From positions 1-64,000 of IMG/VR virus record IMGVR_UViG_3300032289_002239: a DNA stretch of 64,000 nt; one strand, written 5' to 3'. This document shows, piece by piece, positions 2,510 to 56,498 of this stretch; the stretch's first letter is position 1; each line of letters opens with the position of its first letter. Origin of the DNA: a virus. Its lineage: Duplodnaviria > Caudoviricetes. A model generated the notes under the pieces. It did no database searches and had not been told where the DNA came from. It was given only the letters and a program-made list of their open reading frames with translations. A program made the position numbers and the translations under genes.

Positions 2510-2636
2510 TGCTCTATTCTATTCTGATGGCATTATTATTTAGTAAAAATATTTTTCCATAAAAGAAAAGACGCCTCATAAAGAAGCGTCCATTCTCGTC
2601 TGTAGAGAGTGCCATCAGAACAGACTTATTATTTAG
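2510..2636 (-). ncRNA. Tandem late promoter / antisense sRNA cassette A
   Basis: CTAAATA 2630-36; stem GTCTGT/ACAGAC with TTCTGATGGCA in the loop; terminator; CTAAATA 2537-43; TGCCATCAGAA in the 5'UTR. Confidence 0.65.
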
Positions 2637-3421
2637 CCTTGACCAGAAGAGCCAATAACGCTGTTGAAATAAGGATTATAATTCGTAATTTGTTCCACCG
2701 ATAATTCGGAACCTTTTTGTGACCAGAAATTATAAAGACCCTCATAAGAGTTTTTATGGAACGTTTCCACATGGTCCTCATGTATTGTAGAACCAAGTTT
2801 TAAATTATATAAAAATAATGGCACGGAAAAAACTACCCCTGCACCATAGATCAGATCATCTGCTACGGCTCTTGGTCGAATATCTTGATCTAGTTTATAT
2901 TTACCATCTCTACAATGCAGATCGATTAGTTTCTTGGCATATCGTCTCGTTATGGCATAACAAGCAGTAGAAAATTCATTCATTTGATGTTTGTGAATTT
3001 GCAAATGAATGTCCCCAGTGCAGATAATAGCCAGCTGTAAGCAATCCCATGCGTAATTTACTCTAGATAAAAACTCCTGCCAAGTGAAATTCCAATATCG
3101 GGCATTATCAATAATACAATCATCCTCCATAAAAACCGCATATGGAGTGTTACTCGTTTCATACCAATACTTAATGGCCTTTAAATGACTTGTAAGGCAG
3201 CCCATTTCGGCTGTAGTAACATTATCAGGATACTTTCCTTTAATAATGTCACCTAGATCATCATTCCGCCCATCATAAGCAGAAATTCTTGTATAGTCTT
3301 CTATTTCCCAATATTTAAACTGGGATTCCATAAATTCCCGCCTTTCTGGTTGGTCGTCTAGATTGATATAATAGACCGGACCAAAATTATGAAGTTTATA
3401 AACCGATTTGTTTCTATCCAT
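2633..3421 (-). CDS. Glycosyltransferase family 25
   Basis: YYINLD...RR, RISAYDG, EMGCLTSH, FMEDD. Confidence 0.85.
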   Translation of the reverse strand: MDRNKSVYKLHNFGPVYYINLDDQPERREFMESQFKYWEIEDYTRISAYDGRNDDLGDIIKGKYPDNVTTAEMGCLTSHLKAIKYWYETSNTPYAVFMEDDCIIDNARYWNFTWQEFLSRVNYAWDCLQLAIICTGDIHLQIHKHQMNEFSTACYAITRRYAKKLIDLHCRDGKYKLDQDIRPRAVADDLIYGAGVVFSVPLFLYNLKLGSTIHEDHVETFHKNSYEGLYNFWSQKGSELSVEQITNYNPYFNSVIGSSGQG

Positions 3422-4358
3422 TGATCACTTTTGTTATATTTGGTATATAGTGGTTTTCTAGAATTACTTGCCAATCAAAGGTTTTTGCATAATCAAAAAT
3501 TTCTTGTCTGTTTTTGACAGAGTAATTCCGATTTTCGATTATTTTTTTTTCTACATATTCTATATCAGAAATTTTTTCTTCTGGGATTACAGTAATAAAA
3601 TCCTTGAATAAATCGAGATTTGCAGTTGCCCATTCAGAAATAACAACTCCTAGACCAGCAGCAAAAGCCTCTAAACAAACAAGTGGATGGGCCTCTCCGT
3701 CAGATAACAAGACAAGATTACCATAATTAGTAAGGTTTTTATGGAGATATTCTTTAGACCATTCTCCTAAATAATTTTTTGATTTATCAAATTTATTATC
3801 GGCAATATTTCCGGCATAAAAAAGAGACTCAATAGATTGAAACAAATATTGCCTTTTTCTTGAATCTATTTTCGCAAGATAGATTGAACTATCTGGAAAT
3901 TCTGGATGGTTGGTTTTTTCAAAAACCTCACAATCAACTCCATTAGGATTTAAAAACAATTTTGAATCCGGTATTTGACATAAAGATGCATACGTGTCAT
4001 TTATGTCCCTGGATAAACCAAATATTCTCGGTTCTATGGTCTTAAATAAATCAAATACTCTTTGCTTATAAGCTCCCATAAATTTTGGCCTTGTTATGTA
4101 GGCAAAATGGGTTGTTAAAGCGCAAGGATACTGAATATAAGGATAAAGGGGAATCCAATCATCATAATTGATATGGACAAAATCAGGTCTAAATTGATTG
4201 ATTTCTTTAATTATCTGAATAGGATCACCGATATTTATGATCTTCACTTCATGTCCCATACGAATAAGAGTTTTATTCATATCCCAAATAAGACTTTCAA
4301 CCGCACCCCAACCAGTAGGGGGAATTGGGGAATTAGGGCCTATAATACAAATTCGCAT
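3414..4358 (-). CDS. Glycosyltransferase, GT4/GT-B-like
   Basis: IPPTGWGAVE N-terminus, PNGVD, LSDGEAHPLVCLEA (E-x7-E). Confidence 0.8.
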   Translation of the reverse strand: MRICIIGPNSPIPPTGWGAVESLIWDMNKTLIRMGHEVKIINIGDPIQIIKEINQFRPDFVHINYDDWIPLYPYIQYPCALTTHFAYITRPKFMGAYKQRVFDLFKTIEPRIFGLSRDINDTYASLCQIPDSKLFLNPNGVDCEVFEKTNHPEFPDSSIYLAKIDSRKRQYLFQSIESLFYAGNIADNKFDKSKNYLGEWSKEYLHKNLTNYGNLVLLSDGEAHPLVCLEAFAAGLGVVISEWATANLDLFKDFITVIPEEKISDIEYVEKKIIENRNYSVKNRQEIFDYAKTFDWQVILENHYIPNITKVING

Positions 4359-5314
4359 TTTTCCATATTTTTTGCATATATTTTAACAAGACTTTCCCAT
4401 GAAAAATTATCAATGGCATATTGTCTAATTTCATCTCTCATAGAAAGACTAATCTCTCTATTTTCTTCAATTTTTTCTTTGACATAATCAATGTTTTCTA
4501 AATTATCATCGGCTATGACCGTAACATATGGAAGCTCTTCTGTCAAGTCATGGGCCGCGTATTTTGATATTACAGCACCAAGGCCATTAATCATGGCCTC
4601 TTTAACGACCAAAGGAGTTCCATTTTCACCATCAGACAGCAAAACAAGATTACCATAATGAGTAAAATTTTGTCGTTTGTATTCATCAGACCATTCTCCT
4701 AGATAATTTTTGGTTGGATCAAATGGAGTCTGCCCCATTATCTTTCCTACAAAATCAATACAATCGACGGTTTGATAGAGCCATTGCTTTTTTCTATGGT
4801 AGATTTGGCCTAAGTATAAAGACTTAGTTGCATTATCAGGATTTTTAGTATAATTAAATCTTTTATGATTAGCCCCATTTTCTGATAAAATTAAAAGGTC
4901 TTCATTGGCCCCATTTTCTTTAAAGGTATTATAATCTTTCTTAGAAATACAGAAAATGTAGTATTGATTGTTGTTTATAATAAAATCAAAAATCTTATCA
5001 TAACCATCTTGACGATGCATGTGTGGTTGATCGATATATGGATAATGACTACTCATTGCAATCTTTTTTATTTTGGTTTCATTTTTTATCCTATCGAGAA
5101 GAGGATAAAAAACATCATAATGAATATGAGCAAAATCAAAATGATCCGAATTTAGATCATGAAGAATTTCATCCCAGTTCTGAGTATTAGTAATAATTCC
5201 ATCGTGCCCCAATTCAGATAGCTCTAAAGAGTAATCCCAGATTAAACTTTCAACCGCTCCCCAACCATCAGGAGGAATAGGAAGAATTCCGGGTCCAATT
5301 AATGCAATGTTCAT
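4340..5314 (-). CDS. Glycosyltransferase, GT4/GT-B-like (paralog of 3414-4358)
   Basis: IPPDGWGAVE, LSDGENGTPLVVKEA. Confidence 0.8.
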   Translation of the reverse strand: MNIALIGPGILPIPPDGWGAVESLIWDYSLELSELGHDGIITNTQNWDEILHDLNSDHFDFAHIHYDVFYPLLDRIKNETKIKKIAMSSHYPYIDQPHMHRQDGYDKIFDFIINNNQYYIFCISKKDYNTFKENGANEDLLILSENGANHKRFNYTKNPDNATKSLYLGQIYHRKKQWLYQTVDCIDFVGKIMGQTPFDPTKNYLGEWSDEYKRQNFTHYGNLVLLSDGENGTPLVVKEAMINGLGAVISKYAAHDLTEELPYVTVIADDNLENIDYVKEKIEENREISLSMRDEIRQYAIDNFSWESLVKIYAKNMEKCEFVL

Positions 5315-55206: not shown

Positions 55207-55797
55207 TCAGCTTATACCACTAGATCCTTTACCATATCTTTGATCTTGATAATATGCATCTTTTTTGGCTTTATTTCTATGTTTTGTTTTTGGATTTCCA
55301 TCTGGAAGCATTCTAAATGCTTGCATAGTGGGAATCATTCTCAACCCTTTTGGGTGAGTAGGAACTTGTCTACCTGATGCATCAATAGCAGCATCTGCAA
55401 GTTTGTTTCTACCATCAATCAACCCTCTATTTCTTACTGCCGCCTCATCAAGAACCTCTTCCATAATACTCTCCCGCCACTCTTCAGACATGTTGGCCAT
55501 AATAACATCAGCGTCCTCATAAGAATCACAGAAACCTTCGGATACAAGATATTCGGAAACGATGTCGTAGAGGTCTAGTTCTTCATTCATTCCCCTATTA
55601 ATATTTCTTAATGCCCGCTTACGCAGCTTAGATTTAATTAAATCTTCATCCGAATATTGATCAAGGTCGTAACCTTCTTCGATAAGGACCTCGACCCATT
55701 CTTCAATACTAACTAGTTCTTCTTCAGAAAGGGTTTCTTCGGTATAAACACCATGACGATAGGCTTCGTTTAATTGGGATAGTACGGTAAAATCCAT
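55207..55797 (-). CDS. Hypothetical, probable internal virion protein
   Basis: EWV..LIEEGYDL..Y and YLVSEGF......A..IM.NMSEEW modules. Confidence 0.6.
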   Translation of the reverse strand: MDFTVLSQLNEAYRHGVYTEETLSEEELVSIEEWVEVLIEEGYDLDQYSDEDLIKSKLRKRALRNINRGMNEELDLYDIVSEYLVSEGFCDSYEDADVIMANMSEEWRESIMEEVLDEAAVRNRGLIDGRNKLADAAIDASGRQVPTHPKGLRMIPTMQAFRMLPDGNPKTKHRNKAKKDAYYQDQRYGKGSSGIS

Positions 55798-55865
55798 TTT
55801 TAAATTATTAAAACTATTAAGTATTTAGATTATTTGTTCTTTAAGGTTATTGGTTTTTAAAGTTT

Positions 55866-56384
55866 CTATTCAACTCGAATTCTTTTAGATGGGTCAATTT
55901 CTCTTTTTCTTTGATATATTGTAAGTCCGCCAGCATTAGAAACATATCCAGTTATAATGCATTGCCATTTTTGGGAGCTAGTATTTTTACCTCCTTTTTT
56001 TCTAGCTTCAATTTTTTCTTCATATGTCATCCCAAAAATTGCAATGCCTTTCTCTTTATTAGACTGAGCTGTTTTTTTACTATTTTCGCTTCTTTGTTCA
56101 AAAGTTAATGCAAAAATTCCAGTGCTATTTTCTTTTTGTATTTGCCCTCCTCTTATGCAACCCAAAATCTTTGCCTTTTGTTTAGCCTCATCAACATTTA
56201 TTTGCCCAGAAAGCATTTTCCATGCAATCTTGTCTTCTTCATTACTCCATAATTGGTAGTTACAGAAATGGAACATGGCGTGTTGAGTTACTGTTACCTC
56301 AACAAGATTTTCAGGTTCATTGCTCCCACCCATGTATCTCGGTACTAGATGATGTTTATGGGTGCGCTCGTTTGGTCTACACAT
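55866..56384 (-). CDS. HNH homing endonuclease (third paralog)
   Basis: MCRPNERTHKHHLVPRYMGG...HAMFH. Confidence 0.8.
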   Translation of the reverse strand: MCRPNERTHKHHLVPRYMGGSNEPENLVEVTVTQHAMFHFCNYQLWSNEEDKIAWKMLSGQINVDEAKQKAKILGCIRGGQIQKENSTGIFALTFEQRSENSKKTAQSNKEKGIAIFGMTYEEKIEARKKGGKNTSSQKWQCIITGYVSNAGGLTIYQRKREIDPSKRIRVE

Positions 56385-56498
56385 TTTTACTGCTCTAAAT
56401 TAGTTCGCTATTTCTATTTAGAAAATTTTATTGTTAAGGAGGAGAAATAAATCTCCTCCACCTGTTAAGCGCGAACTAATTCAGGTAATGTTATTTAG
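56385..56498 (-). ncRNA. Tandem late promoter / antisense sRNA cassette C
   Basis: CTAAATA 56492-98; stem ACCTG/CAGGT with AATTAGTTCGC in the loop; GGAGGAGA/TCTCCTCC; CTAAATA 56415-21; GCGAACTAATT in the 5'UTR. Confidence 0.7.

Follow-up and report, generated by a model that had tools for sequence, protein, structure and literature searches.

A portable leader cassette with covarying arms precedes selfish nuclease genes in freshwater T4-like phages and may insulate them from outside transcription

Free-standing homing endonucleases and TnpB nucleases need expression that is harmless to the phage carrying them, and prior knowledge of how this is achieved comes mostly from a few genes of T4 and Aeh1. 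Among insertion sequences, IS10 is protected from outside transcription by fold-back inhibition and is also under antisense control by RNA-OUT, a small RNA whose loop pairs with the extreme 5' end of the RNA-IN mRNA; IS200 has a left-end terminator, a hairpin at the ribosome binding site and the small RNA art200. For I-TevI, I-TevII, I-TevIII, segB, Aeh1 mobE and the late genes e and soc, the available text of PMC2988022 describes a masking RNA structure that forms only on transcripts begun upstream of an internal late promoter. The PeSL elements of T4-type phages consist, in the accessible part of PMC4122927, of an early promoter and terminator stem-loops found beside accessory genes and associated with the modular exchange of genes, and in cyanophage S-PM2 an opposite-strand antisense RNA of ~225 nucleotides (nt), CfrI, links psbA with the homing endonuclease F-CphI (as cited in the available text of PMC12197685 and PMC10690425). 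Here we analysed a window of 64,000 nt (positions 1 to 64,000 of the virus record IMGVR_UViG_3300032289_002239), in which five nuclease genes are each preceded by a copy of one composite cassette. Comparison with relatives suggests that this cassette is a portable leader of selfish nuclease genes, ~105-130 nt long, in a clade of freshwater T4-like phages. The best explanation appears to be masking of the nuclease leader in cis, to which we assign a probability of roughly 45%.

The window is the first half of a single-contig record of 127,051 bp with a G+C content of 34.7%, which encodes RegA, a gp46-like ATPase, a MazG-like protein and other T4-type genes. The closest named relatives by DNA are Synechococcus and Prochlorococcus myoviruses, with ~68-74% identity over short stretches only. 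A near-identity search of the phage collection gave no match for the window phage; distant DNA and protein searches placed it near the cyanomyoviruses and returned no relatives of the cassette. At all five sites the same order was found in gene sense: a CTAAATA motif (P1), a first hairpin (hairpin 1), a GC-rich hairpin, an AT-rich spacer, a second CTAAATA (P2), an arm termed A' and the ATG. Hairpin 1 begins 4-6 nt past P1 and has a stem of 4-6 bp and a loop of 14-20 nt, the GC-rich hairpin following immediately 3'. Arm A' is the reverse complement of arm A, which lies within hairpin 1, and the complementarity extends beyond the loop into the 5' strand of that hairpin. In the window copies, arm A' starts at the 5th-7th nt after P2, which we take, from T4 late promoters, to be the start of the P2 transcript, and it lies 7-13 nt from the ATG. 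A preliminary description of the same DNA had already proposed this shared order and the position of arm A' at a T4-type late transcript start, and every string that it quoted was found in its place. It had also noted that P1 overlaps the stop codon of the upstream open reading frame (ORF) in four copies; these are w1-w4, with ORF ends at 2633, 51963, 56495 and 40665. All five of its loop/target pairs hold, the complementarity in w1-w3 being longer than it gave, and the hairpin that it called terminator-like is followed by a T-run in w1, w2 and w4 and by none in w3 and w5.

Four of the five copies lie on the minus strand. Cassette w1 (2507-2636; 77.5 bits with the covariance model introduced below) comprises P1 at 2636-2630, hairpin 1 at 2625-2621/2602-2598, P2 at 2543-2537 and the ATG at 2509-2507. 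Its arm A, TCTGTTCTGATGGCA (2610-2624), takes in the 5' strand and loop of hairpin 1 and pairs over 15 bp, including one G.U, with arm A' (2518-2532) at the predicted 5' end of the P2 transcript; between them lies a terminator-like element (2561-2590) made of the GC-rich hairpin at 2590-2570 and a T-run (7 T of 8). The gene behind it encodes HNH homing endonuclease 1 (1835-2509, 224 amino acids; PF01844 at 22.2 bits, cut-off 21.4; phrog_655, homing endonuclease). In cassette w2 (51856-51970; 73.7 bits), P1 at 51970-51964 overlaps the regA stop codon, and hairpin 1 (51957-51953/51937-51933), the GC-rich hairpin (51924-51905; with its T-run of 7 T of 8, 51899-51924), P2 (51894-51888) and the ATG (51858-51856) follow; arm A AGTTGATTGGCA (51942-51953) and arm A' TGCCAATCAATT (51872-51883) form 12 bp ahead of HNH homing endonuclease 2 (51094-51858, 254 amino acids). 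Cassette w3 (56382-56498; 91.6 bits) has its P1, which contains the gp46-like stop codon, at 56498-56492, hairpin 1 at 56486-56482/56464-56460, a GC-rich hairpin at 56438-56459 with no T-run after it (3 T of 8), P2 at 56421-56415 and the ATG at 56384-56382. Its arms CTGAATTAGTTCGC (A, 56471-56484) and GCGAACTAATTTAG (A', 56395-56408) pair over 14 bp, and the gene is that of HNH homing endonuclease 3 (55866-56384, 172 amino acids).

Cassette w4 (40561-40668; 78.4 bits) carries P1 at 40668-40662, the TAA of which is the stop codon of the MazG-like gene, hairpin 1 at 40656-40652/40631-40627, the GC-rich hairpin at 40626-40605 with a T-run of 6 T of 8 (40600-40626 in all), P2 at 40594-40588 and the ATG at 40563-40561; arm A TTTGGTGACGGCA (40639-40651) and arm A' TGCCGTTACCAAA (40571-40583) form 13 bp, one of them G.U. 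The gene (39634-40563, 309 amino acids), previously labelled PD-(D/E)xK-like, matches DUF7487 in Pfam and a homing endonuclease in PHROGs. Its start had been placed at 40584; the actual one is 40563-40561, the upstream ATG running into a stop codon in the orthologues L036 and L037. The remaining copy, w5, lies on the plus strand (15161-15267; 91.1 bits), with P1 at 15161-15167, hairpin 1 at 15173-15178/15193-15198, a GC-rich hairpin at 15199-15218 without a T-run (1 T of 8), P2 at 15234-15240 and the ATG at 15265-15267. Its arm A TGGTCGCT (15181-15188) and arm A' AGCGACCA (15246-15253) form 8 bp, and homologous TnpB cassettes are known from relatives. TnpB itself (15265-16461, 398 amino acids) matches PF07282, PF01385 and PF12323.

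The five copies stand out clearly within their genome. Same-strand pairs of CTAAATA 40-140 nt apart occur six times in the whole 127,051 bp, and five of the six are the window copies. In a scan for complementarity, the 30 nt after each NTAAATA were paired with the region 25-110 nt before it, at 209 sites genome-wide; the five P2 sites took ranks 1-5 by duplex energy (-20.2 to -29.7 kcal/mol; the median over the genome is -10.2). By length alone the 8-nt arm of w5 is unremarkable, since 57 sites reach 8; its support comes from the energy rank and from the ten TnpB cassettes homologous to it. A covariance model (R1), built from 21 cassette copies, retrieved exactly the five window copies from the genome at 73.7-91.6 bits, the next match having 26.7 bits. 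That partial match (36078-36145) and another at 53394-53509 (22.7 bits) were not counted as copies, nor were L095 and three 21.5-bit matches in relatives. A sixth site at 89746 (minus strand), with a 12-nt run containing G.U pairs, was rejected because the sequence looks coding and a second promoter is absent. We also considered a general 'TGCC' initiator after late promoters as the source of the conserved GGCA/TGCC arm ends and discarded it, as other CTAAATA sites have no TGCC. Divergent CTAAATA pairs on opposite strands, 26-38 nt apart, were seen at 12295-12333 and 60157-60207.

Searches against Rfam 15, at the gathering score and at E <= 10, gave tRNAs and unrelated weak matches only, none of them overlapping the five cassettes. 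A self-cleaving ribozyme, a group I intron and an IStron were rejected on the same ground of absent Rfam support and because the cassette is too short. Two tRNA genes lie at 9483-9553 and 10156-10228, both on the minus strand; only the E-value search returned the former, although its 45.9 bits exceed the gathering score of 29.

IMG/VR was searched with the nuclease proteins, giving 27 HNH, two DUF7487 and 32 TnpB loci. L001-L021 were assessed for the HNH query and L022-L027 left out. The cassette was found in L001 and L002 (the same regA locus, 89% amino acid identity), in L003 and in L004-L006, whose N-terminus is different and resembles GIY-YIG by a motif judged by eye. The 15 loci L007-L021, which lie beside psbA-like sequence and have ~41% identity, carry one TATAAATA and lack the cassette. 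Both DUF7487 loci possess it, as do all ten TnpB loci with at least 78% identity and upstream sequence (L038-L043, L045, L046, L048 and L063). Among the TnpB loci of at most 57% identity it was present in none of the 13 examined, several of which directly abut the preceding gene; L044 and L047, in which the upstream sequence is missing, were left out together with seven more of the 32. Removal of the duplicates L002 and L041 left 21 copies, namely 16 non-redundant ones found via protein homology and the window five. R1 was next applied to the complete records containing L043, L038, L039, L048 and L001, five in all, and gave eight more strong copies, seven of them distinct (L086 equals L092), plus one degenerate copy. 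The total is thus 28 copies, five from the window and 23 from IMG/VR relatives.

Across the 28 copies the arms vary from one copy to another, yet they are complementary within each copy. Cognate duplexes have a mean energy of -22.7 kcal/mol (-29.0 to -19.8) compared with -10.6 (standard deviation 4.0) for non-cognate ones, and the cognate partner was the best in its row in 24/28 and in its column in 27/28 cases. RNAalifold, applied to an unfitted MAFFT alignment of 21 copies, recovered the long-range helix unaided, with compensatory changes in nine of ten pairs. For the pseudoknotted structure (hairpin 1 plus arms) 83.5% of the cells in this alignment were paired, as opposed to 67.3% after shuffling, and none of 500 shuffles reached the observed value; sliding the partners by 1-3 columns left 20-50% of cells paired. 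Mismatches were scored with G.U and A.C at equal cost and at interior positions only. They comprised eight G.U, no A.C and one other, some of them inherited among related copies, so that the independent events are fewer. An earlier count that included two flanking positions per side (23 G.U versus 20 A.C) was uninformative and is superseded by the interior one. This pattern indicates pairing in sense-strand RNA, and on these comparisons the cassette is a conserved and mobile RNA element of the sense strand. These findings bear out the proposals of the preliminary description that loop and 5' untranslated region co-vary, that pairing occurs at the RNA level and that the cassette can stand before unrelated nuclease families, both in the window and in relatives; the Rfam match that it named as removing the novelty was not found.

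Exchange of arms is also seen at single loci. In three phages the arm at the MazG locus reads TTTGGTGACGGCA, CTTAGTGACGGCA and GATTGACGGCA, each with an exact partner, and at the regA locus the HNH proteins of the window and L001 are 89% identical, with unrelated arm pairs and different cassette subtypes. The independence of pairs within one genome, as first suggested, holds in the window genome and in G004, where cognate duplexes are well apart from non-cognate ones, and fails in G001, in which the arm of L046 pairs with the leader of L043 at -23.3 kcal/mol as against -21.3 with its own leader. Faster evolution of the arms was tested in the TnpB cassettes. There the arms have a mean pairwise identity of 0.66, compared with 0.72 in the middle, 0.81 in the remainder of hairpin 1 and 0.80 in the coding sequence; this gave no clear signal over the spacer and is confounded by mosaicism. 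Orthogonality and arm variability do not discriminate between action in cis and in trans.

Most cassettes precede selfish nucleases (HNH, GIY-YIG, DUF7487 and TnpB), but not all do. Among the copies found with R1, the downstream gene encodes TnpB (L082), a GIY-YIG protein according to Pfam (L083), a NUMOD3 protein with a GIY-YIG-like N-terminus (L093) or an endonuclease of the L004 type (L085). The identical cassettes L092 (1501-1699, G004) and L086 (G002), with perfect arms of 12-15 bp, have an RNR-beta-like ORF upstream and only a stump of 31 amino acids of an L004-type endonuclease downstream, and L088 has no adjacent ORF of at least 40 amino acids. In L084 (1501-1640; G005, 21535-21665) an intact w1-type cassette with perfect 15-bp arms and a T-run terminator stands directly upstream of the large terminase gene (PF03237). 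The degenerate copy L094 is followed by a tail-fibre gene, and its arms are reduced to 7 bp.

Comparison with endonuclease-free alleles located the boundaries of the inserts. At the regA locus the stop codon of the HNH gene is followed by what is left of regA's native 3' end and late promoter (~51085-51020, compared with L033), a hairpin, a Shine-Dalgarno (SD) sequence and an Hsp20-like gene, as in the endonuclease-free alleles L033 and L034; the insert therefore interrupts the tail of regA, which it replaces with a tail and stop codon of its own, and brings in P1. Contigs of the metagenome runs X2 and X5 join 51003 to 52146. In 16 endonuclease-free alleles of the MazG locus the gene ends in TGA without a late-promoter motif there, mostly with the next ATG within a few nt, which indicates that P1 and its TAA arrive with the insert. 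At the gp46 locus, contigs of two other metagenome runs, X3 and X4, join 56501 to 55827 with 3 nt between them and lack the HNH3 insert (55828-56500). This insert is flanked by a direct repeat of ~24 nt made of the gp46-like 3' end and a late promoter, which makes P1 a duplicate of the downstream gene's promoter at this locus. Cassettes and genes are also exchanged independently. L039 and L048 share 98% of their coding sequence and 72% of the cassette middle, and L045 and L046, from the same record, have 85% coding identity, an identical 52-nt middle and different arms. Almost the same cassette subtype precedes both HNH (w3, L003) and TnpB (L038) genes, and identical arms are found ahead of two different GIY-YIG genes (L093, L083). 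As separate observations, the region behind the DUF7487 gene (39563-39650, minus strand) contains a GCGCC hairpin, a T-run and CTAAATA and is homologous to the native intergenic region of the endonuclease-free allele L112; at 52460-55474, contigs of four metagenome runs join 52459 to 55475 via 316 other letters, ~3 kb with several small ORFs being replaced in related phages.

The GC-rich hairpin differs among copies in what follows it. The 8 nt after its stem contain at least six T in 10 of the 28 copies, four or five in 6 and at most three in 12, the last group including w3, w5 and all TnpB copies. L084 and L088 fall into the middle class only since the fold draws part of the T-run into the stem and would otherwise have at least six T, which makes 10-12 of 28 canonical. 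Given these weak T-runs in about half of the copies, RNA from P1 or from upstream should continue into the gene there. In the minimum-energy fold of the P1-to-gene RNA the long-range helix formed and hairpin 1 was displaced in all 21 copies of the alignment. From -15 to +4 the mean unpaired probability was 0.21-0.57 in the P1 RNA and 0.36-0.79 in the P2 RNA, the P1 RNA having the lower value in 21/21. The helix can reach an AGAGC box, the SD sequence (in L088, CCTT pairs with the AAGG of AAAGGAG) or ATGGC (w4, L036). In all 28 copies the P2 motif, whose promoter role is suggested by its sequence, lies between arm A and arm A'. Both promoters are of the late type, [C/T/A]TAAATA. A search for RNA runs covering window positions 50500-58500 returned none.

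We propose that the cassette serves as an insulator, on the strength of its anatomy and mobility, of arms that covary and bear a sense-strand signature, and of the thermodynamic preference for folding in cis; promoter activity, start sites, the effect on translation and cis action as the main mode are what we infer from sequence. RNAs with both arms would arise by read-through from the upstream gene or from P1 transcripts that pass the GC-rich hairpin. On such RNAs arm A would pair with arm A' over a core of 8-15 bp (~18 bp with bulges), enclosing the GC-rich hairpin and P2, and the paired arms would bury the leader of the nuclease mRNA, which would be translated poorly. Because P2 lies inside the helix, transcripts that begin there would lack arm A, and they would form the sole translatable class. 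Where the GC-rich hairpin has a T-run, it would add a transcriptional block. Nuclease synthesis would in this way be uncoupled from outside transcription and limited to its own promoter, P2. The cassette before the essential terminase gene in G005 favours such an insulator, which would be harmless there, a strong trans repressor being costly.

Several observations weigh against this proposal. The helix core stops 7-13 nt before the AUG, so that masking of the SD sequence depends on bulged extensions, and the drop in accessibility is moderate. Hairpin 1, which starts at the predicted +1 of P1, shows compensatory changes in three of its five pairs, with 86.7% of cells paired, and masking in cis has no need of it. 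P1 is borne by the insert, being absent from the endonuclease-free alleles at the MazG and regA loci, and action in cis alone would give no function to a promoter that yields nothing but masked or terminated RNAs. The longest arms (15-18 bp) occur in the 10-12 copies whose T-run terminators are strong, where little read-through is expected. The isolated P1-to-P2 RNA, whose two-hairpin fold resembles a stable small RNA, is a further point. As CTAAATA also stands ahead of replication-type genes in the window phage, the early-versus-late logic of T4 need not apply and may not hold here. Masking in cis alone thus leaves the conservation of P1 and hairpin 1 unexplained.

These same features are the strength of a trans-acting leader small RNA, the model of the preliminary description (there a late RNA of ~60-70 nt), which we regard as possible though less probable than masking in cis. 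P1 would give rise to an RNA of 55-70 nt containing hairpin 1 and the GC-rich hairpin, ended by termination or by cleavage in the AU tail. Tentatively, the loop of hairpin 1 would then pair with the extreme 5' end of the P2 mRNA toward the SD sequence and lower translation or stability of the nuclease mRNA, much as RNA-OUT acts on RNA-IN; mRNA 3' ends of the upstream gene would carry the same arm. This mode could coexist with masking in cis. The P1 motif is kept in 28/28 copies, its TAAATA core being intact in 16/16 non-redundant copies found by homology and hence not ascertained through P1, and the RNA start falls at the base of the covarying hairpin 1. Isolated P1-to-P2 RNA folds into two adjacent hairpins and an AU-rich tail in 27/28 copies, leaving arm A ~58% unpaired. 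The copies with at least six of 8 T, to which L084 and L088 belong if the stem is not extended into the T-run, the fact that arm A' begins at the predicted P2 +1 in each of the five window copies and the separation of cognate from non-cognate duplexes in the window genome and G004 are likewise consistent with it. On the other side, in the 12 copies with at most three T the P1 RNA should enter the gene and fold in cis, the complementarity covers the stem of hairpin 1 as well as its loop, and the arms, as seen in the TnpB cassettes, are not clearly more variable than the middle, with no clear selection for new addresses. The cross-pairing in G001 and the intact cassette ahead of the terminase gene also count against it. 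The cassette resembles trans antisense systems in the complementarity to a target mRNA leader that covariation maintains. It is possible, though again less probable, that it constitutes a same-strand 'addressed' antisense system, with a stable two-hairpin P1 RNA and a variable arm pair as exchangeable address, by which the cassettes of one genome would be controlled independently. On this reading the masked long-leader RNA of TnpB might, in addition, be an untranslated precursor of guide RNA.

A role in processing or stability is unlikely. The helix or the end hairpins would act as a signal for RNase III or RNase E, or as protective ends, separating the nuclease mRNA from the upstream mRNA and setting its half-life. 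Such a role would fit the helix of 12-18 bp with bulges around a stable hairpin, the AU-rich single-stranded tail after the GC-rich hairpin in terminator-free copies and the placement of hairpin 1 at the 5' terminus of the RNA predicted from P1. The cassette helix is shorter than a canonical RNase III site requires, and neither arm A' exactly at the P2 start nor P2 inside the helix would be explained. RNase E processing is reported for T4 segB and segG and for Aeh1 mobE (available text of PMC2988022). A DNA-level inverted repeat (miniature-transposon ends, a recombination site or a cruciform) or chance complementarity is very improbable: the cassette is mobile and the w3 insert has its direct repeat, but variable arms in a conserved scaffold are the reverse of transposon ends, the G.U excess over A.C indicates pairing of one RNA strand, and the ranks 1-5 of 209 and the 500 shuffles speak against chance.

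With respect to described systems, the masking proposal resembles IS10 and IS200 in that a mobile element would block translation of its nuclease or transposase from external transcripts by means of a terminator and an upstream complementary segment. RNA-OUT and art200 come from the opposite strand, whereas the cassette has its arm upstream on the strand of the gene itself and its promoters are of the phage late type; the sequences are unrelated. In type I toxin-antitoxin systems an unstable antisense RNA rescues the cell from a small toxic, usually membrane peptide; the genes behind the cassettes are nucleases of 172-398 amino acids and one terminase, and the earlier term 'type-I-antitoxin-like' is only a loose analogy, since the targets are nucleases rather than small toxic peptides. 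With the T4-type control described in the available part of PMC2988022 the cassette shares a late promoter between the 5' arm and the start codon, the predicted escape of promoter-proximal transcripts and its association with selfish nucleases of T4-like phages. The distinction from the single cis hairpin of T4 drawn in the preliminary description is correct in that the cassette is not one local hairpin; it does not extend to the topology, which is the same, with P2 inside the helix and contiguous RNA folding in cis in 21/21 copies. Unlike the T4 hairpin, the arms are 55-90 nt apart and enclose P2 and a GC-rich hairpin that is a canonical terminator in fewer than half of the copies. At its core the helix spans the mRNA 5' end, and it gets to the SD sequence or AUG only via bulges; another late promoter and a 5' hairpin that covaries precede it, and the whole is an exchangeable module common to at least four nuclease families (compared with the accessible portion of PMC2988022). 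PeSL is likewise a short composite promoter/stem-loop cassette and a mobile regulatory concept; its promoter is of the early sigma-70 type, however, and a long-range covarying leader pairing is not described for it in the available text of PMC4122927, where late promoters, antisense and inverted repeats did not turn up in a term search. CfrI, as far as the citing papers describe it, is also a phage non-coding RNA tied to a homing endonuclease gene in a T4-like phage; it is transcribed from the opposite strand, whereas the cassette is an upstream same-strand leader with a variable arm.

An IS200/IS605-type element would combine a TnpB of RuvC and zinc-finger domains with element ends and an omega-RNA at its 3' end; the gene behind w5 has the TnpB domains and no adjacent TnpA. 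At the TnpB loci w5, L038-L048 and L063 a conserved AAAACTT[C/G/T]A stands just before P1, at different genomic positions, three of them in one record; this may be the left boundary of the element or a target motif. A second TnpB paralogue (12363-13550, plus strand), 41% identical to the 15265 gene, lacks the cassette and is preceded by one CTAAATA only, at 12327; a TnpB-like fragment of 25 amino acids lies at 10465-10539 (minus strand).

The principle of control is thus known; the long-range helix around a GC-rich hairpin and an internal promoter, the second promoter, the covarying 5' hairpin and the portability set the cassette apart. The anatomy was absent from Rfam and from the literature searched, which did not extend to supplements and subscription journals, so that a prior description is possible; with 28 copies and no Rfam match the cassette is a candidate new RNA family. 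In the window, unrelated nuclease families share and exchange one reusable regulatory module, and the comparisons strongly support its long-range RNA pairing. If masking in cis is correct, the T4 principle of a late promoter within a masking structure would be extended to a portable insulator with both a terminator and fold-back masking, a solution that is otherwise seen in insertion sequences. If the element acts in trans, it would provide a natural set of programmable same-strand pairs of small RNA and leader. In either case the cassette identifies TnpB genes that have acquired the late-gene control of phages, and it aids the annotation of selfish-gene insertion boundaries in uncultured T4-like phages.

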